Positions 2,054 through 34,790 of a DNA stretch of 64,000 nucleotides are shown piece by piece. The notes beneath the pieces are model-generated. The model saw only the letters and a program-made list of their open reading frames with translations. It had not been told where the DNA came from and made no database searches. The translations under genes and the position numbers were made by a program. The stretch's first letter is position 1, and each line of letters begins with the position of its first letter. Source of the stretch: Alphaproteobacteria bacterium (GTDB taxonomy: Bacteria; Pseudomonadota; Alphaproteobacteria; UBA828); the NCBI GenBank assembly GCA_965221125.1, contig CBDCRW010000004.1:448001-512000 (forward strand), written 5' to 3'.

Positions 2054-3058
2054 GGGTCTATCCCCGCGCGGGCGGGGGAGCCGCAATCCGCCCCGTATTC
2101 CACGCGCCCCAGGAGGGTCTATCCCCGCGCGGGCGGGGGAGCCGGATCGGGGGCGGACAAGAGCCTGGCGATCAAGGGTCTATCCCCGCGCGGGCGGGGG
2201 AGCCACGTAGTTTCGGAACTCGCCGTCGCCAGTGGCGGGTCTATCCCCGCGCGGGCGGGGGAGCCTTCCTGCAGCTCTTCGGCTCGGCGGCCGAGTGGGG
2301 TCTATCCCCGCGCGGGCGGGGGAGCCTCCGCCAGCTCAGCCACCAGGCTATACGCCTCGGGTCTATCCCCGCGCGGGCGGGGGAGCCACGATGTACGGGC
2401 GCTGGCGGGCATATCGCCAGGGTCTATCCCCGCGCGGGCGGGGGAGCCGTCTCGCCGGGGATGTAAGGTTCGCCGCGATAGGGTCTATCCCCGCGCGGGC
2501 GGGGGAGCCAAATCACTACGAAACAGCCTCACCGTAATGTTGGGTCTATCCCCGCGCGGGCGGGGGAGCCACGACCGGGGCGGTGGTCCCGACATCGGTG
2601 GCGGGTCTATCCCCGCGCGGGCGGGGGAGCCATCGGACGATACAGGAGCAGGCCGTTCTTCTCGGGTCTATCCCCGCGCGGGCGGGGGAGCCGCGTAGGC
2701 CACACTGATGTTGGTCAGTGGGCGGGGTCTATCCCCGCGCGGGCGGGGGAGCCAATTCGTGGTGCGAACCCTGGTGTCTGATCTGGGGTCTATCCCCGCG
2801 CGGGCGGGGGAGCCGGTTGAGACCGGCGTTCGCGAATGCATCCGCCGGGTCTATCCCCGCGCGGGCGGGGGAGCCGCCTCCTTACCAAGATCAGCACCAA
2901 TTGGATTGGGTCTATCCCCGCGCGGGCGGGGGAGCCGTAAGCAAATCCGTCCACTTCAACGTAAGCCGGGGTCTATCCCCGCGCGGGCGGGGGAGCCAGG
3001 TCGATGGCGTACTCAAGACCGCCCTCGCCGGGTCTATCCCCGCGCGGGCGGGGGAGCC
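2054..3058 (-). CRISPR. Type I-E CRISPR array, 17 identical 29-bp repeats and 16 spacers of 32 bp
   Basis: GGGTCTATCCCCGCGCGGGCGGGGGAGCC recurs every 61 bp from 2054 to 3030. The reverse complement GGCTCCCCCGCCCGCGCGGGGATAGACCC has the I-E hairpin and 3' handle. Adjacent to cas2. Confidence 0.99.
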
Positions 3059-3102
3059 TCTAGCGATCAACACTTTGATGTATTTACGATGTCAAAGAGC
3101 AG
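3059..3102 (-). promoter_or_regulatory. CRISPR leader with IHF-like site
   Basis: AT-rich. The minus strand at 3080-3068 reads CATCAAAGTGTTG, a near match to the IHF consensus WATCAANNNNTTR, 9 bp from the first repeat. GCTCTTTGACA overlaps the cas2 stop codon. Confidence 0.7.
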
Positions 3103-3415
3103 TGGGCGATGTACGCGAATCCCCTTGCCGTTTTACGAGAAGGACACCGTCTGCGTCCACGATCTCTTTGGGAGGCGCGCCGAGCGTCCGTATGCGGAGA
3201 TTTCCGACGGCTTGCGTGTCCCTCCATACCAGGACGATCGATCCTGTGCGCAGTGCCGACCACCATGCCGACAGCACGTCCCACACCCGTGTCCGCACGC
3301 CCGCCGACAGGTCGGGCGCCACGTAGACTCCGGGTGCAACTTCAAGCATGACGGAGGTCAGAAAGCCGCGATAGCGAGGTTCCACGTTACGGGTGACGAC
3401 CATTGCCATGGGCAT
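3092..3415 (-). CDS. cas2: Type I-E CRISPR-associated endoribonuclease Cas2
   Basis: MPMAMVVTRNVEPRYRGFL...LEVAPGVYV...DADGVLL is typical of I-E Cas2; located between cas1 and the array. Confidence 0.95.
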   Translation of the reverse strand: MPMAMVVTRNVEPRYRGFLTSVMLEVAPGVYVAPDLSAGVRTRVWDVLSAWWSALRTGSIVLVWRDTQAVGNLRIRTLGAPPKEIVDADGVLLVKRQGDSRTSPTAL

Positions 3416-3422
3416 CGTCCGA

Positions 3423-4307
3423 TCACTCCTCCCCGGAGGGGTCCTCGAAAAGAGATTTTATTCGCTCGATCATCGCTGGGATCACATGTTCGCGTGCCAA
3501 TGTTTCCCCCGTCAGCCGGCGGGCAAGCCGCTCGATGTTTTCATCCGGGCGTTCAGTGATCCGCTTGGCGGCACGGAAAGCGGAGGGAATGGTAATGCTG
3601 TCGCGATGAAGGTCAGCGATGTCCAGAACGAACGACTGCCCCGGATCCTCGTGGATGAAGCCGAGTTGCGGGATCGTCGCGGTAGCGGCGACGGCGATGG
3701 CGGCGGCGCCCTCGACCGCGCTCGATGCGTGGTTGAGGGCCTGATTGGGAAAGTCCGCCGCTCCCGGGTCAGCGCGATCATAGCGGCGTCCACGCCACTC
3801 GATCCGGGCTCGCTGGGCGTGCAAGCGATAACTCTCCTTCATTCGCGCGCCCTCGATGCCGCGCAGAACGTCCAGCGAGCGATGCGGCAATATTTCGCCC
3901 AGTCGCCAGGCATACATGCGACGGGCGACGGCAATACGTTCGGCGTCGTCGGCCCATAGCCGCGCTTGCCGCCGCGCCAGGCCGGAGCGGTCGGGAATCA
4001 GCGGCGGGGCGGTGTAGAGACGAACCCCATCCTCTCCCACCGCCGCGAGCCCGGTGCGCGCGTAGGCAAGTAGACGCAACGCGTCATGGCTGACCGTGGA
4101 GCCGGGGCCGAGCAAAATCATCGATACCCCCTGAAGCGGGATCGCGTAATCCCCGGGCCCGAGCGCGTCCGCCGCGGTCGCTTGCCCTTGCAGGAAGGCG
4201 AGCGTGCCGTCTCGGGCTGTCAACGCGCCGCGCGCAAGATAGAGCAACCCGGCCCGATCCCTGTGCGGGACCTTGGCGCTGTCGAGTCCAAGCCGGCCCT
4301 TCAGCAT
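3423..4307 (-). CDS. cas1: Type I-E CRISPR-associated endonuclease Cas1
   Basis: LLGPGSTVSHDAL, LRGIEGARM, LGFIH and FVLDIADL motifs. Confidence 0.97.
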   Translation of the reverse strand: MLKGRLGLDSAKVPHRDRAGLLYLARGALTARDGTLAFLQGQATAADALGPGDYAIPLQGVSMILLGPGSTVSHDALRLLAYARTGLAAVGEDGVRLYTAPPLIPDRSGLARRQARLWADDAERIAVARRMYAWRLGEILPHRSLDVLRGIEGARMKESYRLHAQRARIEWRGRRYDRADPGAADFPNQALNHASSAVEGAAAIAVAATATIPQLGFIHEDPGQSFVLDIADLHRDSITIPSAFRAAKRITERPDENIERLARRLTGETLAREHVIPAMIERIKSLFEDPSGEE

Positions 4308-5087
4308 CTACCGCACCGGAACCGGGCGGCCGGGCGGGCGCAGCAGCAGCATGCCGTAGCCATAGGCTCGATGCCGCCCAACGCCCCGCATCAGCAGCGC
4401 GGAGAACGCCGTCGGATCAGCCACGACGAGAACGCCGTGCACGGTCGCGTCCGGCCCCTCAGAATCGTGATTCTCTCGTGCGACCCGCTGGCGTCGGAAA
4501 CGAACAAGACGAGTTGCTGAACGGTCGAGCGTGGCCGTGGGGGTCAGCCGTTCGGCCAGCCAGTCGAGATAGACCTCCTGCCGTGTCCGGCCCTCGTTGC
4601 TCATGCCGTCCGGCGCTTCGGGGTGGCCGCGCAAGGCCTCTACCAGAAACGCATCGACCTCGCGGCCAGCGCGCACCCGCTCTCTCGAGCCGTTCAGGTC
4701 GCGCCGCAGGCGTCGGATCGGTCGAGCCCGCAGATCGAAGCCCAACCGTTGCCCCGCGCGCCAGTCCGCCGGCATCAGCTTGCTCTCCAGCCCTTCGAGG
4801 CGCAGGACCTTCAAGTGTTCCGGCAGGGCCTGGACGTCCGCCGCGGCGCACAAGGCTTCCGCGTCCATTGCCGAGTACGCGTAGAGATTGCCGGCCCGTC
4901 TGCGGGGCGGGACGAGAAACCTGAAGCAGGGGAGGACTCCCGGTCCCCAGACTTCGGTCACGAGATGGTGCAGGGCGCGGCCTTCGTCATACACGGCGTC
5001 TTTCGATCCGGTCCAACCGCGTTCGCCGGCCCATCGACCTAACTGGCCGGTGTCGACGGGAGCGCGGACCAGATGGAACGCCGTCAT
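4308..5087 (-). CDS. cas6e: Type I-E Cas6e (Cse3) crRNA-processing RAMP
   Basis: C-terminal G-loop GVGRHRAYGYGMLLL. ATG at 5087 overlaps the cas5 stop (ATGA). Confidence 0.93.
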   Translation of the reverse strand: MTAFHLVRAPVDTGQLGRWAGERGWTGSKDAVYDEGRALHHLVTEVWGPGVLPCFRFLVPPRRRAGNLYAYSAMDAEALCAAADVQALPEHLKVLRLEGLESKLMPADWRAGQRLGFDLRARPIRRLRRDLNGSRERVRAGREVDAFLVEALRGHPEAPDGMSNEGRTRQEVYLDWLAERLTPTATLDRSATRLVRFRRQRVARENHDSEGPDATVHGVLVVADPTAFSALLMRGVGRHRAYGYGMLLLRPPGRPVPVR

Positions 5088-5806
5088 GCCGCTGCGGCCG
5101 GAACGATCCAACCCTCTACCACCCGGCGCGTCCCGCCGTGCAGACCGGTGCGCCAGTTCCGCAGGTCGGCCAAATCGGCAACGCGATCCACGTTGTCACC
5201 CGACTCAGGCCCCTGGCCGGAGGGCCATTGGGCGCGCGCTGGCGTTCCGGCACCGGGTACGGCGCGGAGTGCTTCCCAGGCGGTGCCGGCGCTCACCCAC
5301 CGCTCGTCTCCACTCGCTAGCAGCAGTGCTGAGGGCAGGCACGGCTTGCGCCCCAGGAACAGCGGCCGCGCGGGTCGGTCGAGCGCCTCCGCCACCGCGA
5401 CGAGAGTCGGCGCTTCCTCGGCCGGATCCAGACGCAGGACGATGCGCAGCAATGCGTCGGCTAAGTAGTCTCGAAACCGCCTGTGCGGCGCGTCGTAACT
5501 GGCACCTGTCCGTCCCTCCGGCGCGCCATGGGTCGTCCAGCCCTTGTCCTTCCCGGCGAGTTGCGCATTCTGCGCGTCGGTCAACACCGCACCCTCCCGG
5601 TCGCAACGGGCCGCGAAGACCAACCGATCCTGCGTCGCTTGATGCGCGTCCCGGTCCGACCAGTGCCAGCCAAGTGCGTTGCCTATCAGCCCTGTCAGCA
5701 TCGAGGCGGCCGGGAAGTTCCGCGTCGGGCCGACCTGGTCGATGGCCACGCCGCCATAGGCCATCAGGGGCGCTTCGAGGCGCAGGATCAGCCAGTGGTG
5801 CGTCAC
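5084..5806 (-). CDS. cas5: Type I-E Cas5 (CasD)
   Basis: WLILRLEAPLMAYGG...PAASMLTGLIGNALG...RDYLAD...LFLGRKPC. GTG start overlaps the cas7 stop. Confidence 0.95.
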   Translation of the reverse strand: MTHHWLILRLEAPLMAYGGVAIDQVGPTRNFPAASMLTGLIGNALGWHWSDRDAHQATQDRLVFAARCDREGAVLTDAQNAQLAGKDKGWTTHGAPEGRTGASYDAPHRRFRDYLADALLRIVLRLDPAEEAPTLVAVAEALDRPARPLFLGRKPCLPSALLLASGDERWVSAGTAWEALRAVPGAGTPARAQWPSGQGPESGDNVDRVADLADLRNWRTGLHGGTRRVVEGWIVPAAAA

Positions 5807-6933
5807 GGCATAGCCCTTTCCGGCAGGGTTCGGGCCCATTCGGCCAAATCGGCCAGCGTACCGCGCTCGGCGCCAGGGAGATTGGTCTCGTTCGCCAGCG
5901 ACATCGCCCGCCGCTCCTCGCCAGTAGCGTAGGCTTGGTCTAGCGCGACGAGATGATTTGTGAGCGCCTCGATTGCCGGGCCCACGTGCGGAGCGCAAGG
6001 TGTCCGGTATGCCTCGGCGAGGCTGCGCGGCTGCCGGTCGCCGGCCTCCAGTAGCATTAGGGCCGCCCGGCCGTAAGGGGCGGTCGAGCCCAGCTTGGCG
6101 CCCGGTGAGACCTCGGCGATCAGGTAGACGAGATTGTGCAGCACGCTGCCCGCCATGCCGGTGTCGCAGCCGAGATTTGTCGCGAGGCCGGACAGATCGA
6201 CCGCGACGTAGCCATAGAACAGGCCGGAAGTGAGTTCGGTCTCCTGGATCGTGTCCGCACCGGGCTCGTCCTCCCCAAGATCGTCGACCGCCGTGAAGTA
6301 GTCGCTCTCCGGCTCTTCCTCGTGGACGGTGAAGGCATGGGCGACATGCACGGGCGCAGTGATGTTGGCTTCCGGATCGGATGTGACCATGCGCCCGAAC
6401 AACGCGGAGACCAAGCCGGCAGGCAGCGATGCGCCGTCGCGCATCGTCTTGATGTTCGCCTTGAAGTCCTTTCGCCATTTCTGGGCGCCGTCTGCCGCCG
6501 CTTTCGCATCGTCAGACGCCTGTTGCGCCAAATCCTCGGCCTGCTTCTTGAGCCAATTCAGCTCCGGTTCGCCCAACAGCAGTGTCTGGCGACTCGCCCT
6601 GTCGCCGCCCTTGTCACCATAGACTGCCACTTGAAATTCGCCTTCAAGAGCCGCGACAACGTCCTCGGAGAAGTTATCGCGCAAGGGACCGATGACCTTG
6701 CGTGTGACCAACTCGCGCGAACGGAACGCCGCAGTCGCTCCGTCAATCCTGTCCAGCCCGTGCGGATCATCGGCGATGCGCCAATGCCGCTTCAGGCACT
6801 GTGAGGAAATCCGCGTGCGCAGCGCTCTGCCGTAGGGTAACCGCTTGGCCAATCCGCTGTCGTCGCGGTTGAGCAGCGCGGCTGTATAGGAGGTCAAGGT
6901 GTGAACTTGGAGAAAACGGGGACGGGTCATCAT
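5803..6933 (-). CDS. cas7: Type I-E Cas7 (CasC/Cse4)
   Basis: LNRDDSGLAK, RISSQCLKRHWR, ALFGRM, VAHAFTVH and DYFTAVDDL motifs. Confidence 0.97.
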   Translation of the reverse strand: MMTRPRFLQVHTLTSYTAALLNRDDSGLAKRLPYGRALRTRISSQCLKRHWRIADDPHGLDRIDGATAAFRSRELVTRKVIGPLRDNFSEDVVAALEGEFQVAVYGDKGGDRASRQTLLLGEPELNWLKKQAEDLAQQASDDAKAAADGAQKWRKDFKANIKTMRDGASLPAGLVSALFGRMVTSDPEANITAPVHVAHAFTVHEEEPESDYFTAVDDLGEDEPGADTIQETELTSGLFYGYVAVDLSGLATNLGCDTGMAGSVLHNLVYLIAEVSPGAKLGSTAPYGRAALMLLEAGDRQPRSLAEAYRTPCAPHVGPAIEALTNHLVALDQAYATGEERRAMSLANETNLPGAERGTLADLAEWARTLPERAMP

Positions 6934-7511
6934 TCCGTTCCTTCCTCTGATTCCTGGGCCGCGAGCTCTGCGTGGTCGAGCCGGCGGTAGTAGGGTTCGG
7001 CCAGTTGACGTCGGTTATCGGGCGCCAACAGTGTATAGGCGATATCGATGACATTGATGCCGCCGCTTGGGTCGCGGCTCCGGGCCAGGGCGCGGGCCGC
7101 GCGCGTCAGCAGGACGGCGCGCTGCGGCCCACGCGCTGCCATAAGTTGCGCGAGACGCCGTTCGCTGAACACGGGTCTGGGAGGTCCATCGCCCGGCGGT
7201 GGCCATTTCTGGTCGCCTCCGTCACACAACACTTCACCGAGAGAGCGTCGGCGATCGTGCAGAGGGCGGCGCCTGGCGGGATTGCCCTTCTCGGTGAGAA
7301 TCGCAAGGACACGCACGATGGCGGTCCATTCGTGGTGTTGCTTTCGGTTTCCGATGGTGTCGGGATGCCGCGCGGCCAGTCGCCAGAATTCCGGCGCCGC
7401 CGCCTCTTCGGTCATCAGGCGCAATTCTGCAAGTGGGCCAGGTGGTAGGTGCTGCAACCTCTTGGCGGCGGCGCACGCGGCTTCCGCCGGTTTGTCATCA
7501 GACAGCGTCAT
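6930..7511 (-). CDS. cas11: Type I-E small subunit Cas11 (Cse2/CasB)
   Basis: Small helical ORF between cas8e and cas7 with L.PG.LAELR, SERRL and ..YY motifs. Start placed at MTLSDD. Confidence 0.85.
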   Translation of the reverse strand: MTLSDDKPAEAACAAAKRLQHLPPGPLAELRLMTEEAAAPEFWRLAARHPDTIGNRKQHHEWTAIVRVLAILTEKGNPARRRPLHDRRRSLGEVLCDGGDQKWPPPGDGPPRPVFSERRLAQLMAARGPQRAVLLTRAARALARSRDPSGGINVIDIAYTLLAPDNRRQLAEPYYRRLDHAELAAQESEEGTE

Positions 7512-9042
7512 CGGCCCCCTCCCGGTCGAACAACTCGGGGTAGTAGTGTTTCCACATTCGGTTACGGAGCGCCCGCCGTGCCCGTGCCTCAGCCCTCGGA
7601 CGCAAGGCCGTCGGGCAGGGGATGGACGGAAGCGCCGCCTCGAATTCTGTCTTCGCCGATTCCCACAGATCGGCAAGGAATGCCCGCCTCGTCTCGAAGG
7701 CCGCGTCGTCGCTTTCGGTTGCCGCGCCGGTCCGACGCCACAGGCTTGGAAAGAAGAGCCGGTCGGCGGCCTGATCGAAGCGCTTTCGGGCGGGCCCGGC
7801 ATGAGCGAAGTGTTTTTTTCCAATGGCGCCGTCTTCGGTCTTGCCGCCCGCAGCCGTCAACGCGAGCGCATATGCCAGCGCCTTGTCGAAGCTCTCGATC
7901 TCCTTTAGCTGCTCCGAGGCAAGTCTTCCGATGTCGCCGGACGAGAATAGCGGCACGACTCTTCCGGGCACCGGCACCACGCGCGACTTGAAGCCTCCGG
8001 TCTTGCTGTTGCCGCGCGCGAACGCCTCCGCCACGACGAGCATGTCGCCGGTCTCGTCGTCCCCCGGACAAGCGAGAAGCGGCCTGTTCCAATTGCCAGA
8101 GAACAGCAAGTCGTAGAGGCGGCGATAGTGGAAGTCGCCACTCTCGCTGAGGGTCAGGCTCTTGCCACTGTTGTCGACCGGCGTCCAAGGATCGCCGGTA
8201 TTGCCCCTGAGCGCCTTTGCGTCGATGCGCGTTCCTTTAGAAGTAGCGCGGTGCGCCGATAGTCGCCCGCCCGACTCTGTCAGGCGCACGCGGCGGCAAG
8301 TCTCGATGAACCAAGGATCGAGTGTGCGAATATCGAGCTGTCGGCCCTCCGGCCAGTCAAGGCACCAAAGCAGTGCTGGTCCGCCCCGCGTGCCGAGTTC
8401 GCCATGCGCGCCCTTCTCCCGTGCGGTCAACAACAGCTTCACGTCCCGCGCCCACCAAGCTGAGTGATCGATGGATATGCCCTCTCCTCGGGTCGGCGCG
8501 AGGCCCAGCAACGGGCGGCTGGACGAACCGCCGTTCATGCGCGCAATCCCGTTGTTCCCTCTGCCGCCGTATCCTTCGCAGGTCTGCAGCGACACCAGGG
8601 CGTAGACCCAGTCTTCGGCCGCCGCCTGCCGCGCGACCGCCTGCTTCAAGTCGTGATTGCGCGCGGTGATTAGCATGTCGAGTGCGTCGGGGGTGGGGAC
8701 CTCGGACCACTTCAATCCGCCCGGTGCCGGGGCCTGCAGGAAGGCGGGCTCGCTCCGATCCGCAACCGCTAATCGCCAAGGTGAGTCGTCCGGATGGTCC
8801 GCTGTCAGTCCACGCAGGGCAGCCATCCAGGACTCGACGTCCCGCGGCAGGTCGCTGCGGTCCGCGGTCCACAGCGCAAGCGCGCCGAGCTGAACGAGGA
8901 ACATATGCAAAGCCGGCCGCTGGTGAGGGCGCAGCGCCGTGAATCCTCCTACCTCGCCACGCACCAACGCGGCGAACAGGACAGGGAGCGAGGTCCTGGT
9001 GCCGTTGGAAACAGAGAAAACCGGATCGTGGAGCAGGTTCAT
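7498..9042 (-). CDS. cas8e: Type I-E large subunit Cas8e (Cse1/CasA)
   Basis: MNLLHDP start, RPHQ..ALHMFLVQL, PAFLQ and GYGGRGN.G..RMNGG motifs; operon position. Confidence 0.9.
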   Translation of the reverse strand: MNLLHDPVFSVSNGTRTSLPVLFAALVRGEVGGFTALRPHQRPALHMFLVQLGALALWTADRSDLPRDVESWMAALRGLTADHPDDSPWRLAVADRSEPAFLQAPAPGGLKWSEVPTPDALDMLITARNHDLKQAVARQAAAEDWVYALVSLQTCEGYGGRGNNGIARMNGGSSSRPLLGLAPTRGEGISIDHSAWWARDVKLLLTAREKGAHGELGTRGGPALLWCLDWPEGRQLDIRTLDPWFIETCRRVRLTESGGRLSAHRATSKGTRIDAKALRGNTGDPWTPVDNSGKSLTLSESGDFHYRRLYDLLFSGNWNRPLLACPGDDETGDMLVVAEAFARGNSKTGGFKSRVVPVPGRVVPLFSSGDIGRLASEQLKEIESFDKALAYALALTAAGGKTEDGAIGKKHFAHAGPARKRFDQAADRLFFPSLWRRTGAATESDDAAFETRRAFLADLWESAKTEFEAALPSIPCPTALRPRAEARARRALRNRMWKHYYPELFDREGADDAV

Positions 9043-9185
9043 CCGGGGGTCAGTTTCGTTCACCGTGCTGCGAGTGACAAACTGCCGGCTGCTTGCGCGG
9101 CAATCCTGATCGCATCGACAAAATACCAGAACCAACGGTTTCGGAACAAACAAGAAACACTGTCCTTGGGCGGGGACAGTAGGTC

Positions 9186-11735: not shown

Positions 11736-11868
11736 CTCGCTTCATTCAGCCACCTTGTTGCTACTCGTAGAACTGCCATCTCGCGCATGAATTCGCGTTC
11801 AGGAGCCACTCCAATGCACGATCGGATTTGGCCGCGATTTATTCCACGGGCCGCTATGATCTTGCGTC

Positions 11869-14800
11869 ATGGTCGCGACGGTCCGCAACCTGACCTCTTC
11901 GTCTGCCACCTCGGAGTATTTCCGCCAGGACGGCGGCTACTATCTCCGGGATGGCGAGGACGCAGCGGACCTTCGCGCCAAACGGGCCGAGCACCGAAAC
12001 GCAAGCACCTGGCACGGCAGCGGCGCTCTTGCCCTGGGATTGCATCCCGGCAAGCCGGTCGCGGCCGGCGCCTTCGAGAAGCTTCTTCAGGGCCACGTGA
12101 TCGGGACGAAGCAGCGCCTCGGTCGCCTGCGCGACGGGCAGCACGAGCACCGTCCGGGCTTCGACATCACGTTCTCGGCGCCGAAGTCTGTGTCGCTGGC
12201 GGCGCTTCTACCGACGGAAGAGCACCCGCACGGCGACCGGATGGTGATTCGCGCGCACAATGCGGCGGTGCGCGAGACGCTCGACTGGATCGAGGGTTCG
12301 CTTCTGGAGACGCGTGGCTGGGACCCCGCCACCGGCAGGCGGCCACGGGTGAAGGCGCCCTCGATGGTGGCCGCGCTGTTCCGCCACATCGCGAGCCGCA
12401 ACCTCGATCCGCAGCTCCACACTCACGCGGTGATCGCCAACATGACCCGGGACGGGGAGGGGCGGTGGAAGAGCGTGGAGCCGACGCTGCTGCACCGCAA
12501 TGCGAGACTGATCGGGGCGTATTACCGCGACCGGCTGGCACGGCAGCTGATGGAGAGGGGCTATTCGATCGTGCCGGCGATGGTGGGCCGGCTGCCGAGC
12601 TTCGAGCTTGCAGGCTATGGCCGGGAGCTGCGGGAAGCGTTCTCGACGCGCCGGCACGAGATCCTGGCCTATGTGGACGAGAAGGGCTGGGATCGCAGCG
12701 GGGTGGCGATGCAGGCGGCGACGCTGGCGACGCGCAAGCGGAAGGCGGAGCCGGTGCGGGCTCAGCTGCAGGAGCTGTGGCGGGAGCGCGCACAGGAATT
12801 GCGCCTCGACACGGCGCTCGCAGAGGCGCGCGCCGGGCAGGCGATCGTGCTTCCGGAGAGTCCGTCGGCGCTGGCGATCGTTCGCCGCTGCATGCGCCAG
12901 CTGGAGGAACGGCGATCGGTCTTCTCCGAGCACGATCTCGAGGCGCTGGCTCTCGGCCATTCGCCGGGCCGGCATTCGCTCGGGGAGATCCGGGACGCGA
13001 TCGCCTGGCTGGTCCGCGACGGCCACCTGGTCGAGGCCGAGCTGCGGCGCGCCGACCGGGCCTTCGTCACCGACCGCGCGCTGAAGGCGGAGCGGTCCAC
13101 GATCGCCATGATGAAGGCCGGGATCGGCGCCGGCGCGGTGCTGGCGCGGGAGAAGGACGTGGCGTCCCACCTCGACGGCGCCGGGCTCACCGAGGGACAG
13201 GAGGAGGCGGTTCGCACGATCCTGCTGGCGCACGACCGGGTCGTCGGCGTGCAGGGCCGGGCCGGGACCGGCAAGACGACGATGCTGCGCCAGGTGCGGG
13301 CGCTTGCCGGGGAGAAGCCGGTGATCGGCCTGGCACCCTCGACCGCCGCTGCCGCTGTGCTGGGGCGCGAGACCGGCATTCACGCCCGCACGCTGCAGTG
13401 GCTCCTGGCGCGCCGCCGGGCGGCGGGCGGCAACGGACAGGCGCTGGAGGCGTTGAAGGAGATTTTTGGGGGCGCGGTGCTGGTGCTGGACGAGGCATCG
13501 ATGGTGTCGACCGACCAGATGCGCTCGCTCCTGCGTGCGGCCGACGAGCTCGACACTGCCCGCGTGGTGCTGGTGGGCGACAGCAGCCAGCTCCGCGCGG
13601 TGGAGGCGGGGCAGCCGTTCCGGCTGTTGCAGCGGGCGGGGATGACGACGGCGGCGATGGACGACATCCTGCGCCAGCGGAACCCGGAGCTGCGGGCGGC
13701 GGTGCAGGCGGTTCTGGCGGGCGATCCCGGCGAGGCGGTGGAGTTGCTCGGCAGCAGCGTGCACGAAGTGGCGCACGAAGAGCTCGGTGAGAAGGCGGCG
13801 CAGGCCTGGCTGGCGCTCGACCCCGCCACCCGCGACAACACCCTCCTGGTCGCGCCCACCCATGCGCTGAGGGAAGAGATCAACCGGACCGTCCGGGAGG
13901 CACTGGCGAGCGAGGGGGTGCTCCGGGGGAAGGCGCTCGGGATCGAGCGCCTGGTCAGCCTGGGCTTGACCCGGACCGAGAAGGGGGACGTGCGCAACTA
14001 CCGGGAAGGGGACCTCGTGGTGTTCCACCACGACCTGGTGAACTACCGGCTGAAGAAGGACGAGATCCTGACGGTGACCGGGATCGAGTACGACCGGGTG
14101 ATGCTGCTGCATCCTGACGGCAAGCCGCGCTGGATCCGGCCTGCGGGCTCGGTCCGATACCAGCTCGACGTCTACGAGACCCGTCCCATGGAGATCCGAG
14201 CGGGCGACCGGGTCCGCTGGACCCGGAACGACAGGAAGCGGTCGCTCGTCAACGGCGAGCGGGCCGAGGTGGAGGGGATCGCCAAGGGCCGTGTGCGGTT
14301 CCGGCTGGATGACGGGCGGGGGCTGTCGCTGCGGGTGGACGATCCGCAGTTGCGGCATATCGACCACGCCTGGAGCTCGACGGTGCACGGCGCGCAGGGG
14401 AGCACGGCGGAGGGGGTGATCGCGGTGCTGGATTCGAGCCACGGCGCGCTCACCGACCAGTCGACCTTCTACGTCGAGATCAGCCGGGCGCGAGACCGGG
14501 CGGTGGTGCTCACCGACAACGCCGAGGAGCTGGTGAAGGTTCTGGCCGACAACACCGGGGAACGGCCGACGGCGCTTGAGGCGGTCGACGCGCCGATCGA
14601 GCTCGAGCCGGAGGAGATCGTCCGGCTGCTGGCGGAGGGGGAGCCGTCCTGGTCGCTGCGCGACGAATGGCAGGCGCTGGAACGGCAGGCGTGGCGCGAG
14701 GGCACGGTGCTGTTCCTGATGGAGGGCTACGGGGCGCTGATCGGACGGGCGCGGGAGCTCGCCGGGAACCCGGACCTGTCGGCCGCGACCAGGGAGGTGG

Positions 14801-17501: not shown

Positions 17502-18526
17502 TCACGACTTGATCCAGCCCGCCCGGTGCCTGGCCGCGCCGCCAAAGAAGGCAAGGCACGCCCGCGCCAGCGATCTCCGCCTTCCCGCCGTCGTGAGCAC
17601 GGCATGGAAGCTCCTGCCTGTCTCGACGAAGCCGCCCGCCTGCATCACCAGAGTGCCGGCCTCCACGTGCCGTCCGATCAGATGACGCCAACCGAGCACG
17701 AGGCCGCGGCCGGCAACGGCTGCGTCCAGCGCCTGGGCGTGGCTCTCGACGACTTCGTACCGGGGGTCCGGGGGCGGACGCCCCGCGGCCTCGAACCAGC
17801 GCTCCCAGGACGCTCCGCCCTCGTCAGGCCCTGCGAGATCGAGAAGGGTCAGCCCCTTCCAGCCCGCCGCAGGTCCATTCAGAACCTGCGCATGAGCGGC
17901 GGCGTAGCCGGGAGAGCAGAAGGCGCCAACGGCTCCCCCGGCAACCGTCACGCGGTGCTGGGTGCGGCAGTCTCCGCGTCCCAGGTCAGCATCAGATCGG
18001 CGGCGGTCTCGGACGGCGCGGGCGCTGCTGCGTTTGTGTGGGCGAGAATGCGGATCCGGACGTGATCTCCAAGCGCCGCTTTCAGCGCCTCATAGCGCTG
18101 CATCGCGAAGAGTTGCGACAACTCGTCCGGACAGGCGATCGCCACTTCCGTCCCGTCCTCGCTGGAGTGTTCCGCAATCTCCGCGGCCCCGTCATGGAGA
18201 GCGTCGAGAGCCACAAGGACCGCCTTGTGAAAGCGCAGCCCCGCGTCGGTCAGGCTCACCCCGGTCCGGGAGCGCTCGAACAGCCGTGCCGAGAGCTGGT
18301 CCTCCAGGCGCGCAATGAGTCGGCTGATCGCCGACTGCGAGGTGCCGAGCTCCCGCGCCGCATGGGAGAAGCTGCCGTGTCGCGCCGCGCTCTCGAAGGC
18401 GATCAGGGCGCTCATGGAGGGAAGCCGGTAGGGACTGCGATCGCTCAAGGGCGCGCGGGCGCGGCCGGAGCGCACGTTCCCGTCCCCGCGTTGCGCCACA
18501 TGGCGCGGCTCTCCGTCGTTGGCCAT
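17502..18526 (-). pseudogene. LysR-family (GcvA-like) regulator, frameshifted near 17950
   Basis: The HTH (LPSMSALIAFESAARHGSFSHAARELGTSQSAIS) is in 17948..18526 and the substrate-binding half (WERWF...AAVAGRGLVLGW) is in another frame at 17502..17951. Confidence 0.8.
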
Positions 18527-18609: not shown

Positions 18610-19055
18610 TCACTCCGCCTGCGCCGGCGCCACGCGCTTCGTCAGCATCACCACGTTGCGCCCGTCCTGCCGCCGGCAAGCCACCGTGTCCATCGTCTTC
18701 TGCACGAGATAGATGCCGAGACCGCCCTTGGCGCGATCCTGCAGTGCGGCGCGATATCCGGCGCCGGCGCCCGCAGCGGGTCGAACGCCCTGCCGTCGTC
18801 CGCGATCTCGATCGCCAGCGCTCCGGCCTCAAGGCGGAGGACGAGATCGATCCGATGCTCCCGGTCGTCGTCGTAGCCGTAGCCGATCGTGTTGGTCACC
18901 AGCTCGTCAGCCGCCAGATTGACCTCAAAGGCAATCTGCTTCGCCATCCCGTGCTCTGCACGGAACGCGCCGACGTTCTCGGCGGCGACGGCGACATTCC
19001 GCAGATCGTTGACCGGCGAGAGCTCGAGAGCGTCGCCGGTACCGGCGGCAGCCAT
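18610..19055 (-). pseudogene. Anti-sigma factor/HATPase_c (RsbW-like), frameshifted
   Basis: VNLAADELVTNTIGYGY and IEIADDGRAFDPL in one frame; GGLGIYLV and NVVMLTK continue out of that frame. Confidence 0.75.
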
Positions 19056-19114
19056 TTCCCCCGGGCCCGCCTGATGCAGCACGCGCCCGCCGCAGCTTGC
19101 GTCTCCGGCGGCCG

Positions 19115-19396
19115 CTACCGCGTAGCCGGCTCGACAATGATGCGCCCGCGGCCGCGCCTGACGAAGTAACCGCCACGCGGGATAGCGAGCGTGCCCTGCT
19201 GAACCAGCGGCCAGAGAGTATCGACGATCAGGGTCGCATTCTTGTCCGGCGCCGACCCCGCGGTCCCCGGCTGGGCCGCGAGCCATTCCAGGAAGGCCCT
19301 GTCGGCGATATCTCTGCCGATGGATTTTCGCAGCGCATTCAGTTTGCGCGCCTGCCCCCTGGTCAGGCCGCTCTCGTCAATCTCGATACCGGGCAC
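19115..19396 (-). CDS. Small hypothetical protein (93 aa)
   Basis: Strong GGAGGGAG RBS and protein-like composition (LNALRKSIGRDIADRAFLEWL). Confidence 0.7.
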   Translation of the reverse strand: MPGIEIDESGLTRGQARKLNALRKSIGRDIADRAFLEWLAAQPGTAGSAPDKNATLIVDTLWPLVQQGTLAIPRGGYFVRRGRGRIIVEPATR

Positions 19397-19856
19397 GGCA
19401 ATCGCTCCCTCCGATGTCGCTCAAGGGCGAGCGTTATAGCAGATCGCGCCGACAGGCATCTCCAGCGGTTTCACGGTCACGCAACCCGGTGTCGCTGCCA
19501 CGGGATGGGGTGCAGGAAGAAGACGGGCCACGCGCATGAGCGGGGCCGTCCGCATGTTCTCGCGCCCAGGCGGGCGTGGCGCACCGGCGTACGCGGCGCA
19601 CCGGCGTATGCGGCGCGAGCCATGTCCGCCATGCCGGTTTCGTGCTCGACCCGGCTCCCGGTGCCGCCGAGGACCGGGCCGTTCCCCCGGCGCACGGCCT
19701 CCCCGTCTCCCGCCGTATTTCTCTTTCTGCGCCGCCTTCACTTCGGCACGCCGCCAGGAGTCGGAGGCTGGCCGAAACGAGGGCGCGGCGGGTCGCGTCC
19801 CGGGAGAGGGGGGCGTCCCCGCCGTCTCCACCAACCTGCCAACGGGAGGCGGCACC

Positions 19857-20174
19857 ATGCGGACATCCGGGACAGTTCATCGAAGCGCACAAACGTTTCT
19901 GACCCATGTGTTCGGGCGCGGTCTCGACGACGAGCGCTATGTCGTCGAGAGATACGAGTCCGATTTCGAGGGCCAGATCCGGCCCTGGCGGCCGGGCAAG
20001 GGATCGAAGGACGCGCGCAAGGCAGCGCGGAAGGTGATGAGCCTTCGCGCCGTGCAACGGCTCCGGCCGGAGCGGAACGAGATCATAATTGCCACCGGCG
20101 TCGAGCTTGCCGGCGGCGTTCAGTACTACGGCGAGCATGCCATCTGGCCCCATATGTCGCGGCGGCATCGGTGA
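19857..20174 (+). CDS. Small basic hypothetical protein (105 aa)
   Basis: GGGAGG RBS before ATG 19857; protein-like sequence MRTSGTVHRS...GEHAIWP. Confidence 0.6.
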   Translation: MRTSGTVHRSAQTFLTHVFGRGLDDERYVVERYESDFEGQIRPWRPGKGSKDARKAARKVMSLRAVQRLRPERNEIIIATGVELAGGVQYYGEHAIWPHMSRRHR

Positions 20175-20286
20175 TCGAAGGATTGGCCGGGGCGTCCCTA
20201 CCGGGCGCTCCGGCCCTCGTCTTGCGCCGGAATACCGGTGGAAAGGCGCGCTCCTTGATCGTCGTCAACACGAAGGATCGCAGATC

Positions 20287-21093
20287 ATGCCCTACGCCGA
20301 CATCGAGAGGCGGAGAGCGCTCCAGCGCGAACGTCACCGGCGCCGTATCGTCGAGCGGGCCGCTCTCGGGCTCTGCACCCGATGTGGGATCCGCGCCGTG
20401 GCGCCCGGCCGGCGGCAGTGCGAGCCCTGCCGCAGAAAGGCGCGCGCCGCCGAGCGTGCGCGCTATGCTGCCGGCAAAGCCAGGGGCGAGCTCTACGGCG
20501 GCCGCCGGGTGGCAACCCGCAGGCGCGACAGCCGTGAGCGGGGCAGAGAGCGCCATCGCGCCCGGCGCGCGGCTGGAACGTGCACGATGTGCGGCCGGAT
20601 GCCACCCATGGTGGGCGCCGCCGTCTGCGAGGGTTGCAGGTCCGACCGTCGCGCCCGCGAGCGTGAGCGCTACGCCCGCCGCAGGGCCGAGGGCCGTTGC
20701 GTCCGCTGCAACGACGCGGCGCCGGCTGGGTCCTCCCGCTGCCGGCAGTGTGCGGCCATGGAGGCGTCGCGGCCGAAAGGGCGGAAGAATGCCCAAGACC
20801 GCAAGCGGTACGCGCGCCGTCGCGCCCGGAAGCTCTGCTCACGATGCGGGGCCTGGGCGGGTGCCGCCAGCACGTGCGACTCCTGTTCGCGGCAAGCCCG
20901 CGTGCGCTCGCCCGAGTATCGAGGAGTGCCGTTGTCCGGGCCCCTCTTCACCGTCGTCGAGATCGCGACCGGTCGAGAGTTGGACACGTTCGAGACCGAG
21001 GCCGAGGCGGCGGCCGCGCTGGCGTTTGCCGGCCTCGGCCCCGGCGATGTCGAGATAGTCTCGGACAACACGGCCGCACTGACCGCGTGGTAG
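20287..21093 (+). CDS. Arg-rich protein with four paired CxxC (zinc-finger-like) repeats
   Basis: CTRC/CEPC, CTMC/CEGC, CVRC/CRQC and CSRC/CDSC separated by R.RY..RR helices; GAAGGA RBS. Confidence 0.8.
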   Translation: MPYADIERRRALQRERHRRRIVERAALGLCTRCGIRAVAPGRRQCEPCRRKARAAERARYAAGKARGELYGGRRVATRRRDSRERGRERHRARRAAGTCTMCGRMPPMVGAAVCEGCRSDRRARERERYARRRAEGRCVRCNDAAPAGSSRCRQCAAMEASRPKGRKNAQDRKRYARRRARKLCSRCGAWAGAASTCDSCSRQARVRSPEYRGVPLSGPLFTVVEIATGRELDTFETEAEAAAALAFAGLGPGDVEIVSDNTAALTAW

Positions 21094-21587: not shown

Positions 21588-22922
21588 TCATGTCCACCGC
21601 CACAGGAGGTCCTTCGAGATCTGCCTCGCGATCCTGTCGCGCTGGCGCTCCAGGCCGTTGTGCGCCGACCCGAACTGCCCCCCCTCCAGCCGGATCACCC
21701 TGCCGATCCGCTTCATCAGGCGGTGGGTCTCTTCCTTCTTCTTCTCGTATTCCTCGCTGCCAAGCCCCATGACCTCGATCACGTAGCGCACCTTGTCGCT
21801 GCCGTCGGTGGAGCCGCCCGGGCGGCTGACGGTGAGAAGGCCGTCCGGATGACAACGGCCGTCGCGCACCCTTATCGGGAAGAGCGGCCTCTCAAGCTCG
21901 ACCCGGACGACACCGCCGAGCGCCTCCCGCAGCTCCTTGCCGCTTCGCAGATCCTCGACCAGTCGTGCAAGCGACAGGAGCGCCTGGCGCTCGTAGTCAG
22001 AGTCGACCGGGATCGGCAACTCCGGCGCGGCAATCGGCTCCGCGTAGGCCATGCGGCACTCCCATCCGTGCATGTCTGCGGACTGCGCCAGCGCGCCCAG
22101 GAAGAGATAGGGCCCCTCCACCCTGTTGTTGTGGATGAGCCGGGAGACCACGGGAGACGTCACCCTCACATGGCCGGCGCCCCCGGTCCTGCCGTTGATG
22201 TCGTGGCCCTCCACATCGTGCGCGACCCAGCACAGGTAGCCGCAGGGCGGGGGATCTTTCGGCCAATGCCGCGCGCGCTCGTCCAGCCTTTCCCGGAACT
22301 CACCCGAGTGCCAGCTCGCGGGGGCCGTGCACAGCACCTCCGACGCCGGAACCCCCGGCGCGACGGGGAACGCAACTGCGGCGCGTCTGAGTTCCGCGAG
22401 CCAGTCCTCCGATGACGGAAACCGCTCCACACCGGCCAGTGTGTGCAGCCGCGCCTCCCGGATGAAGCACTTGAGCATGTAGGCCACGACCGGGACCGAC
22501 CGGCCCGTCCCGCTCCAGGGCTTGTGTTCCAGGTCGCGTTCTGCCGAAGCCTCGACGTCCCGCTCGTGCGAGAGCGGATTGAAGAAGAACCGGGAGGCGC
22601 CTTGCAAGTGTTGCAGGCGGAAGACGCAGTTCCCGGCATGCGGCACGGAAGCGTCGGGAAGGTTGCCGAGACGCATGCTGCGCCGTCCCCGGCCGGGCAC
22701 GATGACAGGCTGCTCCAACCCATCGGGCAGACAATCGCACAACATCCAGCAATCCGCGTCGCAGAGGGCCCTGATCACGGCGTCGTGGAGCTTTCGCGCC
22801 GCCGGGTCCTCCTTCCGGCGCCTTACTCTTGCGTCCTTGACCTTGCGCAGGGCGTATTCCTCGAGAGACTCAAGCCAACGGACGTGCTCCCGGCTGAACG
22901 CCCTTATGACCTCGAGAGCCAT
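21588..22922 (-). CDS. DUF1173/CoiA-like protein, putative PD-(D/E)XK nuclease with N-terminal Zn site
   Basis: WMLCDC...HAGNC metal-ligand pattern; C-terminal HPDGLL...YVIEVMG....YEKKK; GGAGGGAGG RBS. Confidence 0.6.
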   Translation of the reverse strand: MALEVIRAFSREHVRWLESLEEYALRKVKDARVRRRKEDPAARKLHDAVIRALCDADCWMLCDCLPDGLEQPVIVPGRGRRSMRLGNLPDASVPHAGNCVFRLQHLQGASRFFFNPLSHERDVEASAERDLEHKPWSGTGRSVPVVAYMLKCFIREARLHTLAGVERFPSSEDWLAELRRAAVAFPVAPGVPASEVLCTAPASWHSGEFRERLDERARHWPKDPPPCGYLCWVAHDVEGHDINGRTGGAGHVRVTSPVVSRLIHNNRVEGPYLFLGALAQSADMHGWECRMAYAEPIAAPELPIPVDSDYERQALLSLARLVEDLRSGKELREALGGVVRVELERPLFPIRVRDGRCHPDGLLTVSRPGGSTDGSDKVRYVIEVMGLGSEEYEKKKEETHRLMKRIGRVIRLEGGQFGSAHNGLERQRDRIARQISKDLLWRWT

Positions 22923-23230: not shown

Positions 23231-23746
23231 TCAGAACAGCTCCTTCTGACCGGAGTCGCCGACCCTTTTCCTTGGGCGCGCCGGCTTCTGCGGTTTCTTC
23301 GGCTCCTGCGGTTTCTGTGCCGGCGCCGGCGCCGTGCGCATATTCTGCATGAAAGCGGCGGCGATGATTGCCGCCCGCTCGTCGCCGAACACTTGCCGCA
23401 GGAGCGCCTCCGCGTCGCTGCTCCGGCCCTGCCGCACCATCGTCTCAAGCCGCGCCTTCAGCAGCGCGCCGAGGCCGTCCGTGACCTGCGAAGGCGCGTC
23501 GATGTCCGAGCGCAGGCTCCGCGCATGCTCGCTCACGGCCCGAGACACGGACTTCTGCTGTTTCTCGTCGAGCACCAGCCGGCGATGTTTCCGCGGCAAG
23601 GGATCCACCGTCAGCGCGCAATGGACCACCCAGGCCGACACCGACATTCCGGCCTCGTCCGCCCCCGACTCGACGTCGGCCCACTCCTCGTCGGTCGCGG
23701 AAATCGTCTGCGAGGTCCCCGCCCTGCGCACGCGCCGCCTTTTCAT
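23231..23746 (-). CDS. MobC/ribbon-helix-helix-like protein 3
   Basis: QTISATDEEWADVESGADEAGMSVSAWVV matches the MobC-type RHH pattern. Confidence 0.7.
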   Translation of the reverse strand: MKRRRVRRAGTSQTISATDEEWADVESGADEAGMSVSAWVVHCALTVDPLPRKHRRLVLDEKQQKSVSRAVSEHARSLRSDIDAPSQVTDGLGALLKARLETMVRQGRSSDAEALLRQVFGDERAAIIAAAFMQNMRTAPAPAQKPQEPKKPQKPARPRKRVGDSGQKELF

Positions 23747-24069
23747 GGCCCCCGCTCTTCTTCGCAGAGCAGCAGAAAGCGCACCACTTCATGGATCGCC
23801 AGGGTCGTCTTCCCGCCGTCCTGCGCATCGACAACGATGCTCTTCGACCGGGCGAGAACGCGGCTGTCCTCGTAGAGGCGACGCTGCGCGTCTTCGGCGA
23901 GCACCAGCGGATGACCAAGCGGTTCCGGAGGAGCGCTCGCGCTCGCAACCCGGCGGCAGCACAGAATGACCAGGCGCGAGAGCGATATCCCCGCCCTCTT
24001 GGCCCGCCGCCGCATCTTCTCCCGCGCCTCTGGCGAGCAGTAGATGCAGCGCTTCTTCGCCAGGATCAC
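23743..24069 (-). CDS. MobC/ribbon-helix-helix-like protein 2
   Basis: RCIYCSPEAREKMRRRAKRAGISLSRLVI RHH pattern; stop overlaps the next start. Confidence 0.65.
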   Translation of the reverse strand: MILAKKRCIYCSPEAREKMRRRAKRAGISLSRLVILCCRRVASASAPPEPLGHPLVLAEDAQRRLYEDSRVLARSKSIVVDAQDGGKTTLAIHEVVRFLLLCEEERGP

Positions 24070-24082
24070 GGCACTTTCCGCT

Positions 24083-24415
24083 TCATCCCAGATCGCCCTC
24101 GCCCTCGATCCAGGCGTCCACCGCGCCTACCGCCCTCCGCCACAGCTCTTCGCCCATCTCGCCGTCGTTCACGAGACGCAGCCTTTGCAGTTCTTCGAGG
24201 ATCAACACCGCCTTTGCCGCTCGCTGCAGCACCGGCGAGGGCAGAGCGGCATCGGTCGTGGCGGCCTGCGCCTTGCGGTCGAGGCAGCACCTGATGACGT
24301 AGTCGGAGTTCGACAATCCCGCCGCTTGTGCGCCCTCGTTGATCTCGGCCCACTCGGCATCGGTTGCACCGACCCAGCGCTGCTTCCGCTTTTCGCCCTT
24401 TTGTCTCGCCGGCAT
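24083..24415 (-). CDS. MobC/ribbon-helix-helix-like protein 1
   Basis: RWVGATDAEWAEINEGAQAAGLSNSDYVIRCCL RHH pattern. Confidence 0.7.
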   Translation of the reverse strand: MPARQKGEKRKQRWVGATDAEWAEINEGAQAAGLSNSDYVIRCCLDRKAQAATTDAALPSPVLQRAAKAVLILEELQRLRLVNDGEMGEELWRRAVGAVDAWIEGEGDLG

Positions 24416-24745
24416 CGGCCCGCCCGCGTCCCTATGGTGGATATCCGACTATATCCGCAAATGAACAGATAAAACCATACGTCCTGCATATCGACCTTCA
24501 GCCGTCATCCCACAAGCCGCAGATTACTGCGCAGATGATAGACACATCAACACCCGAGTGTCACTATCGCAACAAGAAAGACCTCTCCTGCCATGGAAAT
24601 ATGACCGTTACTTCCATAGTTGACTTCAGTATAACCATATGATGTAACACGCATGCAACGGATGACCATCGCATAACGAGTCTAACCACCGAACCACCGA
24701 ATCGTCGGTATTGTTTTCTACACGGAAACGCTCTGACTCTTTGTC
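24416..24745. other. AT-rich non-coding region, candidate oriT/island end
   Basis: Sharp GC drop. Direct repeats ATATCCG x2 (24441, 24451) and AACCACCG x2 (24684-24699). R388-like hairpin plus TGTCT^AT on the minus strand at 24562-24538. Confidence 0.55.
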
Positions 24746-34773: not shown

Positions 34774-34790
34774 CACGCGTCTCCCCTGGT

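Follow-up and report, generated by a model that had tools for sequence, protein, structure and literature searches.

When a complete type I-E CRISPR-Cas locus stands back to back with the gene of a giant relaxase, is it carried by a mobile island, and if so, where does that island end and how could it move? The question is raised by a 64-kb stretch of DNA from an alphaproteobacterium (positions 448,001 to 512,000 of contig CBDCRW010000004.1, hereafter the window), in which cas3 starts at 11735 on the minus strand and a MOBF relaxase gene starts at 11869 on the plus strand, the 133-bp divergent arrangement already reported in a preliminary description of the window. That description took the region for an integrated mobilisable element that spreads adaptive immunity. 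The comparison with relatives bears out a backbone without type IV secretion system (T4SS) or type IV coupling protein (T4CP) and with a slot that repeatedly holds defence genes; on the other side, no left border or recombinase is seen in the window, and the cas genes are separable from the backbone.

We lean, modestly, towards the reading that the cas locus is cargo of a mobilisable island whose backbone extends from 11.81 to 24.725 kb, with its right border at 24724/5. The locus is most likely cargo of the same island that was acquired separately from the backbone. Judged by sequence, the island family is chromosomally integrated, lacks a T4SS and is similar to integrative mobilisable elements (IMEs). 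Since the GC content of the window is about 69%, genes were picked by their third-position GC (GC3) and then checked by profile searches, with a Pfam scan covering 55 open reading frames (ORFs) of the window. All genes from the CRISPR array through the ribbon-helix-helix (RHH) genes have GC3 values of 0.72-0.87, below the 0.90-0.94 of the host-type genes (DUF1636, alpha/beta hydrolase, acyl-CoA dehydrogenases and others) that run rightward from 24874, where housekeeping genes had indeed been said to resume.

A conserved backbone at unrelated genomic sites

The backbone of the window copy is made up of the following features:
11812..11868, plus strand: short conserved region before the relaxase gene, with a TATGAT box 8 nt before the ATG; junction of cargo and backbone
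11869..17346, plus strand: MOBF relaxase-helicase, 1825 aa (Pfam, NCBIfam, structure alignment)
21588..22922, minus strand: DUF1173-like protein, 444 aa (zinc motif, Atlas clusters, PF27227 label of homologues)
23231..24415, minus strand: operon of three RHH (NikA/TrwA-like) paralogues, RHH1 23231-23746, RHH2 23743-24069 and RHH3 24083-24415
24416..24725, plus strand: AT-rich oriT-like end region, about 310 bp, GC about 0.5 (conservation, GC scan)

Relatives were collected by scanning species-representative genomes with an alignment of 21 relaxase proteins, which gave 79 loci with 10-kb flanks (L numbers below), all from uncultured bacteria, and 32 window proteins were compared with these loci by tblastn. 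The window shares about 90% nucleotide identity with L001 over 11851-18905, 20849-21156 and 21573-24724, and 81-87% with L002 over 11847-17328 and 21498-24862, and in both cases the flanking genes are unrelated. This high DNA identity amid unrelated surrounding genes indicates that the relaxase gene, the genes for the DUF1173-like and RHH proteins and the AT-rich region form a single conserved backbone, which has recently stood at different genomic sites. The proposal that relaxase, RHH trio and AT-rich region belong together as a mobile backbone is thus upheld by its recurrence at unrelated loci with a precise right end. The RHH genes, which that description put 6-7 kb beyond the relaxase, were found 5.9 kb beyond its stop codon, and the AT-rich region is evident as a drop in GC from a surrounding level of about 0.69 to 0.47-0.52 in windows from about 24400 to 24760. 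Homologues of RHH1, RHH2 and RHH3 occur in 16, 12 and 16 of the 79 loci, respectively, and the full trio accompanies a giant relaxase in L001, L002, L003, L005, L006, L009, L010 and L011.

In the relaxase, a TrwC-type HUH domain (about residues 1-315) is followed by an SF1B helicase (about 440-880), and a further 925 aa extend the C-terminus. The protein matches TrwC with 250 bits, AAA_30 with 166 bits (1e-48), UvrD_C_2, and the NCBIfam MobF profile with 238 bits (cut-off 100), and its N-terminus aligns with the TrwC structure 1OMH (E 5e-38). Among 21 family members, Y17, Y24, Y25, D99, H173, H184, H186 and D541/E542 are invariant, as are the DEAS motif and seven of the eight residues of the Walker A stretch G463-T470 (T467 is nearly so). 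Which of the tyrosines match Y18 and Y26 of TrwC we infer only tentatively, since the printed alignment offsets them. The relaxase looks intact, having the full length of the family and its invariant catalytic residues. Residues 900-1825 gave no family match; the AF2 model of this part (encoded by 14569-17346; pLDDT 84) is a long helical rod with two small beta domains, for which Foldseek against the PDB returned generic helical rods, and the TraI translocation-signal domain only at E 0.13, a match that we do not rely on. The extension also shows about four repeated helical hairpin modules before the beta domains and is 33-82% identical in 10 relatives.

Against plasmids, megablast with the relaxase gene gave no match, and tblastn found only plasmid MobF genes with about 31-36% identity, in alignments that cover 47-53% of the protein, roughly its first half (the first ~900 residues). 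A large protein set held 3625 matches, of which the best 120 are nearly all full length and 54-94% identical. Many of these 120 lie on Mb-size contigs, and several copies may stand on one contig. The relaxase family is thus large, and several of its copies can share one genome.

The DUF1173-like protein carries an N-terminal CxC...Hx3C zinc motif in which C62, C64, H95 and C99 are invariant. Its 96 homologues in the large protein set bear the precomputed label PF27227, and its nearest Atlas clusters are DUF1173 and Endonuc-like_C (0.96-0.97); our local Pfam search gave no match. The C-terminal half of its AF2 model (pLDDT 81) is PD-(D/E)xK-like, and Foldseek returned weak nuclease matches for it (Bax1, VRR_NUC, PaqCI and R2 endonuclease, best E 3e-3), which are not relied on. 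As DUF1173 is described in a passage of PMC3045609, it has the same zinc motif and a nuclease-like C-terminus without active-site signature, and is there given no known function. Homologues occur in 9 of the 79 relaxase loci, each time beside a giant relaxase. The three RHH proteins are paralogous in their N-terminal parts; with the NikA-like Pfam profile (cut-off 27), RHH3 scores above the cut-off (36.5 bits), and RHH1 (25.3 bits) and RHH2 (22.4 bits) score below it.

The right end and its terminal motif

Within and beyond the end region, the following elements were mapped:
24564 to 24535, minus strand: promoter-like site GTGACA-18-TATCAT, which overlaps a family-conserved block and fits the RHH operon
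near 24620: conserved TTGAC block
24696-24709, plus strand: hairpin with 5-bp stem and 4-nt loop, 5' of the terminal motif
24716-24725: terminal motif, at which homology with the relatives stops (24724/5)
24726..24873: flank beyond the element end, GC-rich with two hairpins, shared only with L002

The ends of nine copies were compared (window, L001, L002, L003, L005, L006, L009, L010 and L011). In 9/9 copies with RHH3 in view, the motif [TC][TG]CTACAC lies 300-410 nt from the RHH3 start and is directly followed by unrelated sequence. In L003 and L006, host genes (3-hydroxyacyl-CoA dehydrogenase and DUF1244, respectively) come within tens of nucleotides of the motif; in L009, a host gene (PhzF) follows shortly after it. 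The element thus ends at 24724/5, about 20 bp before the right limit of 24745 given in the preliminary description. The end region of the window retains every conserved block. With up to three mismatches allowed, the window contains no further copy of the end motif, and a regular-expression search of the loci gave scattered matches only, without matching context. Beyond the RHH genes of 10 short-relaxase loci from neighbouring clades, the terminal motif was not found, apart from a single CTACAC without context in L016. From the conservation, 24696-24725 is the candidate nicking site of the relaxase.

A conserved end of this kind raises the possibility that the giant HUH relaxase itself integrates and excises the island, its right terminus being the nic site and no recombinase being needed. 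The element would then have been joined by relaxase strand transfer to nic-like chromosomal targets, with the DUF1173-like protein and the RHH trio assisting. That conservation stops at a candidate nic, a short motif preceded by a small hairpin, in 9/9 copies at unrelated sites makes such integration possible; two tyrosine positions are invariant in the family, the window has no recombinase, and in the laboratory TrwC integrates DNA into 17-bp nic-like targets, a reaction enhanced by TrwA, according to a passage of PMC3264647. Many related loci, however, have tyrosine or serine recombinases less than 10 kb from the relaxase, which makes such integration less likely. In addition, no nic-like half-site was recognised at any left junction, and the hairpin is a weak feature, because its distance to the motif varies between the copies that have it; that of the window also fits a terminator pattern. 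We therefore regard relaxase-catalysed integration as improbable.

Some further observations concern the two sides of this end. About 140 bp beyond the motif are common to the window and L002 (18850-18973) only, at 72% identity, though the neighbouring genes differ; this flank could be a shared target sequence or a co-transferred flank. We dropped the idea that 24725-24875 is a repeated element, being present only in L002 and not repeated elsewhere in the window or the loci. In L001 (20527-21522), a tyrosine integrase gene ends at about residue 290, exactly at the end motif, as if the element end had replaced its 3' part. In some relatives, the TTGAC block, some 100 nt short of the end, resembles an outward promoter; as the promoter scan reported none there in the window, this candidate was also dropped.

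A variable slot upstream of the relaxase gene

In a tree of 63 N-terminal relaxase sequences, from which 17 loci with a matched stretch shorter than 700 residues or with stops had been left out, the window falls within a 13-row giant clade (SH-aLRT 100) nested in a 22-row clade. The relaxase side carries defence or mobile genes in 11/13 giant-clade copies, the others being L012 and L007, the flank of which lies outside the annotation. On the relaxase side, the following genes were found:
window: type I-E CRISPR-Cas, IS110
L001: IS66 and DDE transposases
L002: IS3, relaxase fragment
L004: type I restriction-modification
L005: MqsA-like protein, insertion sequence (IS)
L006: Mrr, MmeI_N, HigB, IS21-like
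L008: two tyrosine recombinases
L009: serine recombinase, reverse transcriptase
L010: CRISPR array of 27 repeats (28-nt repeats), 1-1713, ending 60 bp before the relaxase ATG
L011: Cas9-Cas1-Cas2 (type II) with a 15-repeat array, 4187-9667; cas9 diverges 333 bp from the relaxase gene
L012: porin
L017: MmeI/Eco57I-like genes

Beyond the end motif, in contrast, defence genes occur in 0/9 copies and a mobile gene in 1/9 (the truncated integrase of L001). It is common for island families to combine a conserved module with a fixed hotspot at which variable DNA is exchanged; that this family does likewise is the simplest reading. Relatives also have cargo within the backbone: a methylase, a TIR protein, MNT/HepT and a ResIII helicase separate the relaxase gene of L005 from its RHH trio, a position at which L006, the ~90%-identical paralogue of L005 on the same chromosome, has nothing, and in L011 the DUF1173 gene and the RHH trio flank an Eco57I-like gene. 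The RHH/end module of L003 precedes the relaxase gene, so that the slot before the relaxase is internal to the element there.

CRISPR arrays of four repeat types stand beside relaxases of the family (window, L010, L011 and L048), those of L010 and L011 within the 13-member giant clade and directly at the slot. By a rough estimate, which assumes one to three arrays per genome, an array would be expected in less than 1% of random 20-kb stretches. The array of L048 (18292-22104) has 39 repeats and stands with cas1/cas2 beside a coupling-protein-linked element. Taken together, the one-sided flanks, the cargo inside the backbone of relatives, the order in L003, the recurrent CRISPR arrays and the lower GC3 are our reasons for placing the cas locus inside the island.

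Eukaryote-like repeat proteins (WD40, LRR, ankyrin and MORN) are also frequent near the relaxase loci, for example in L002 (24526-25521), L004 (19353-24680), L013 (6950-8929), L054 (8571-9674) and L055 (7873-9435).

The type I-E locus

The CRISPR-Cas locus that occupies this slot in the window consists of the following parts:
2054..3059, minus strand (transcription as judged by repeat orientation): CRISPR array, 17 repeats of 29 nt and 16 spacers of 32 nt, 61-nt period
3092..11735, minus strand: type I-E cas operon (PADLOC, Pfam, NCBIfam)
3092-3415, minus strand: cas2
3423-4307, minus strand: cas1
4308-5111, minus strand: cas6e
~5084-5800, minus strand: cas5e
5803-6933, minus strand: cas7e
6930-~7499, minus strand: cas11e
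7498-9153, minus strand: cas8e
9186-11735, minus strand: cas3

The type I-E set is complete, since 8/8 proteins match subtype-specific PADLOC profiles over nearly their full length, with E-values of 8.6e-46 (Cas2e), 1.6e-143 (Cas1e), 3.9e-29 (Cas6e), 9.6e-59 (Cas5e), 5.6e-95 (Cas7e), 5.5e-44 (Cas11e), 1.6e-150 (Cas8e) and 9.5e-166 (Cas3e), and Pfam and NCBIfam concur. The repeats at both array ends are perfect. Only 32 AT-rich nucleotides (3060-3091) separate the last repeat from the cas2 stop codon, so that the CRISPR leader must be very short or overlap cas2. The spacers gave nothing beyond 13-18-nt seeds when compared with the window and the 79 relaxase loci; since they match none of the fetched related elements, we see no sign of conflict between elements.

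Does the cas locus travel with the backbone?

The observations set out in this section weigh against the cas locus being cargo of a mobile island. Homology among close relatives begins only 3-25 bp upstream of the relaxase ATG (in the window, L001, L002, L017 and L003, and in L008, L010 and L011), with blastn breakpoints at 11844-11853 against L001, L002, L017 and L003. A weaker, family-wide similarity reaches to about -60 from the ATG, and no sigma-70 consensus site was called in 11812..11868. Because the homology stops 18-25 bp before the ATG, the minimal conserved unit does not include the cas locus. In a second arrangement (L005, L006 and L009), the DUF1173 gene lies upstream of and divergent from the relaxase gene, and the shared core starts, again sharply, at the DUF1173 stop codon; no recognisable end motif was found at the left edges of these three copies.

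Alone, the place where homology starts and the lack of an end-motif repeat would suggest that the mobile unit comprises no more than the conserved core (about 11812-24725), with CRISPR-Cas as a separate resident or independently acquired locus; the core may have landed beside the cas locus, or both may have gathered in the same hotspot or defence island. Besides the sharp recurrent breakpoints, this would account for the closest relatives, L001, L002 and L017, having the backbone without cas genes, and for the difference in GC3 between cas genes and backbone. Against it, random insertion of a core predicts like flanks on both sides, and not defence or mobile genes on the left of 11/13 copies versus no defence genes on the right of nine; the same slot is internal to the element in L003; and the left edge of the core has no terminal motif or repeat. 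For these reasons we think it unlikely that the core moves alone, and keep to the reading that the cas locus is cargo.

That the closest relatives lack the cas genes makes it clear that cas locus and backbone are separable. Homologues of cas1, cas2, cas3, cas5, cas6e, cas7, cse1 and cse2 were found in 0 of the 79 loci within 10 kb of the relaxase; of the co-occurrence that the preliminary description wished to see surveyed, that of the relaxase clade with the RHH trio is therefore present (the eight loci named above), and that with cas3 of the window's type is not. Annotation was full for 17 of the 79 loci and covered the one or two nearest upstream ORFs in 52 others. The GC3 of cas1, cas7, cse1 and cas3 is 0.72-0.77, compared with 0.87 for the relaxase gene, which suggests different histories. 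The closest Cas3 homologues, 85-90% identical, are on contigs of 9-21 kb, none of which was matched to a contig bearing one of the 120 best relaxase homologues, a weak hint that the cas locus occurs without this relaxase too. An attempt to link cas3 and relaxase homologues through shared contigs gave two coincidences, which were unable to prove adjacency, and was abandoned.

The mobility of the window copy itself can also be doubted. No left border or att repeat is visible in the window, no tRNA gene is found as integration site at either end (the only tRNA of the window is at 43028), and the 64 kb contain no recombinase by Pfam on the 55 ORFs or by tblastn with four recombinases of relatives. 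The proposed check for an integrase, an att site or a second oriT to the left of the locus thus gave none within the window; the right end could be mapped to 24724/5, and the left end was not found. Recombinases do occur within 10 kb of the relaxase in L008, L009, L015, L026, L033, L058, L060, L069 and others, and are of the tyrosine type (often tandem pairs) or the serine type. Since they are common in the relatives, the window copy has presumably either lost its recombinase or keeps one to the left of the window; one may lie further left, as the left window edge cuts an IS110 element. Signs of decay are this IS110 and a frameshift in a LysR gene, as listed below together with the variable genes between the relaxase gene and the right end:
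2..1600, plus strand: IS110-family insertion sequence, transposase 55-1158 (Pfam Transposase_20, DEDD_Tnp_IS110), extending past the left window edge
17502..18526, minus strand: LysR-family regulator pseudogene, N-terminal part 17948-18526 and C-terminal part 17502-17951 in different frames
18648..21093, mixed strands: variable internal cargo, an HATPase_c_2 ORF and two ORFs of unknown function
18648-19286, minus strand: HATPase_c_2 (anti-sigma-kinase-like) ORF (Pfam)
19536-20174 and 20089-21093, plus strand: the two ORFs of unknown function, without Pfam or PADLOC match

The two LysR parts match profile positions 2-142 and 160-281 (NCBIfam/Pfam), and the L001 homologue is a single intact ORF of 337 aa. 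Because of the missing recombinase and left border, the IS110 and the LysR pseudogene, the window copy is probably unable to excise unaided and may have kept only part of its function. One could go further and take it for an immobile fossil, a decaying remnant that no longer transfers and in which the cas genes are now a plain chromosomal defence locus. The unusually short leader implied by the 32-nt gap between repeat and cas2 and the lack of helper genes in the window would fit this, as would the decay signs and the missing recombinase. The relaxase gene, the DUF1173-like gene and the three RHH genes are, however, full length with their invariant residues, every conserved block of the end region is kept, and the ~90% nucleotide identity to L001 in another genomic context argues for recent movement. 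A fossil state is accordingly rather doubtful in our view, though it deserves serious consideration, and a mobilisable island with cas cargo remains the account that we prefer.

Side observations touch on these genes. The IS110 element, which adds to the earlier account of the locus, is 91% identical at the nucleotide level over 1617 bp to a copy in L020 (8355-9963), on the same chromosome as L001. There it adjoins a short relaxase gene whose first 47 residues are unmatched, and one may ask whether the IS targets the 5' ends of relaxase genes. The stretch 18905-20849 of the window is absent from L001, and both ORFs of unknown function have homologues beside relaxases in L017 and L041. We considered 19536-21093 as one frameshifted gene and dropped this, the L041 counterpart also being two ORFs.

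Transfer machinery, helpers and polarity

As the preliminary description had it, the window has no coupling protein, VirB, Tns or integrase genes, none being found by Pfam on the 55 ORFs and none by tblastn with the recombinases and T4CP/TraG proteins of relatives. There is no T4SS in the window, and no T4CP within 10 kb in the 13-member giant clade. No row of the 22-row clade is labelled with a coupling protein, in agreement with Pfam scans of part of that clade, and a separate clade accounts for 23/24 coupling-protein-linked rows. Over the whole survey, tblastn found a coupling protein in 27-28 of 79 loci; by Pfam, a TrwB-type coupling protein stands directly upstream of the relaxase in 24 loci, with one partial copy in addition, and TraG_N further upstream in 9.

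Three assemblies contain both a coupling-protein locus and a giant-clade copy (L074/L002, L050/L007 and L077/L003). Because coupling-protein loci share assemblies with these three relatives, helpers are conceivable, and transfer of the backbone by a co-resident helper is plausible. The backbone set consists of the giant relaxase-helicase, the DUF1173-like protein, the three RHH proteins and the oriT-like end, and the type I-E locus fills the variable position of the family directly before the relaxase gene. In the mechanism that we propose, the RHH proteins would bind the end region and the relaxase would nick near the terminal motif; a co-resident conjugative element that has a related relaxase would provide, in trans, the T4SS and coupling protein through which the DNA is exported.

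The coupling-protein-linked loci are of interest in themselves. In 24 loci among L027-L077 (at about 4300-10000), coupling-protein and TraG_N (F-type) genes stand directly upstream of closely related relaxases. The records of the coupling-protein-linked loci are labelled Pseudomonadota, Thermodesulfobacteriota or unclassified bacteria, which suggests that such elements are exchanged across phyla.

In conjugation, the transfer genes enter the recipient last. This rule, and the order of hairpin and then motif on the plus strand of the end region, which resembles R388, indicate that transfer probably runs out of the island, toward higher coordinates. According to a passage of PMC4176350, the R388 nic region has a hairpin and then, before the cleavage site, a 3' single-stranded stretch. 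The preliminary description had the nicked strand run toward lower coordinates, through relaxase, cas genes and array; with the hairpin 5' of the motif on the plus strand, the opposite direction is indicated. It had also placed the nick at about 24539, whereas our candidate nick is near 24720 and 24535-24564 is the promoter-like site for the RHH operon. Since transfer would lead out of the island, its effective spread would need prior excision.

Relation to known systems

With IMEs, the island shares its chromosomal location, an own relaxase and oriT-like region, the lack of a T4SS, and defence cargo. It differs in that no integration/excision module and no att sites were found in the window copy, and in a backbone that combines a relaxase of ~1800 aa, a DUF1173-like protein and three RHH genes. 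It is not an integrative and conjugative element, there being no complete T4SS with coupling protein in the window and no T4CP among the 13 members of the giant clade. As a passage of PMC10201445 states, it is well established that integrated mobilisable elements can carry defence systems.

The DNA-processing (Dtr) module of R388 (oriT-trwA-trwB-trwC) offers a closer likeness. In both, a TrwC-type N-terminal domain is followed by an SF1B helicase, RHH accessory genes adjoin the oriT-like region and are transcribed away from it, and a hairpin lies 5' of a short conserved motif. In contrast to R388 and plasmid MOBF relaxases, the island relaxase is only ~33-36% identical to plasmid MobF, over the first ~900 residues only, and has an extra C-terminus of 925 aa. 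Furthermore, the island is chromosomal and lacks trwB (the T4CP), has three RHH genes instead of one, and adds the DUF1173-like gene.

CRISPR-Cas is reportedly already known as a plasmid accessory. Plasmid-borne systems and the locus of the window have in common a complete CRISPR-Cas locus beside conjugative-type transfer functions; the carrier here is an integrated island without T4SS. The DUF1173-like protein agrees with DUF1173 (PF06666) and PF27227 (Endonuc-like_C) in the CxC...Hx3-5C zinc motif and in a C-terminal PD-(D/E)xK-related fold without canonical signature, and differs in the constant relaxase linkage seen here in nine loci and in giving no match in the local Pfam search. A literature search, in which subscription journals were poorly covered, found no description of the backbone, the relaxase clade or the DUF1173 link. 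The island family is widespread, apparently undescribed and often equipped with defence genes, and apparently cannot transfer itself.

Other genes of the window

Among the host genes, a small ORF and a PIN-domain gene at 54523-55137 resemble a VapBC-type toxin-antitoxin pair. The host part also contains, at 33478-36295 and 55929-59773, sulfur-oxidation genes (flavocytochrome c sulfide dehydrogenase, SoxY and SoxZ) and a corrinoid methyltransferase set with URO-D-like, B12-binding and RACo activase proteins.

Implications

If the cas locus does travel with the backbone, adaptive immunity in uncultured bacteria would move on small islands that hitch-hike on the secretion systems of others, and the same backbone family would swap CRISPR types and restriction systems at one fixed slot. 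The backbone pairs an unusually large relaxase with DUF1173, a protein family of no known role. Its sharp end at a conserved motif provides a testable handle on where these relaxases cut, and also lets one ask if natural integrated elements can have a border that is set by a relaxase. Should that be true, improbable as we hold it to be, relaxase integration would be the natural counterpart of the laboratory integration by TrwC, and a class of defence islands with type I-E, type II or other CRISPR systems or restriction genes would be spreading among uncultured bacteria without a dedicated recombinase.

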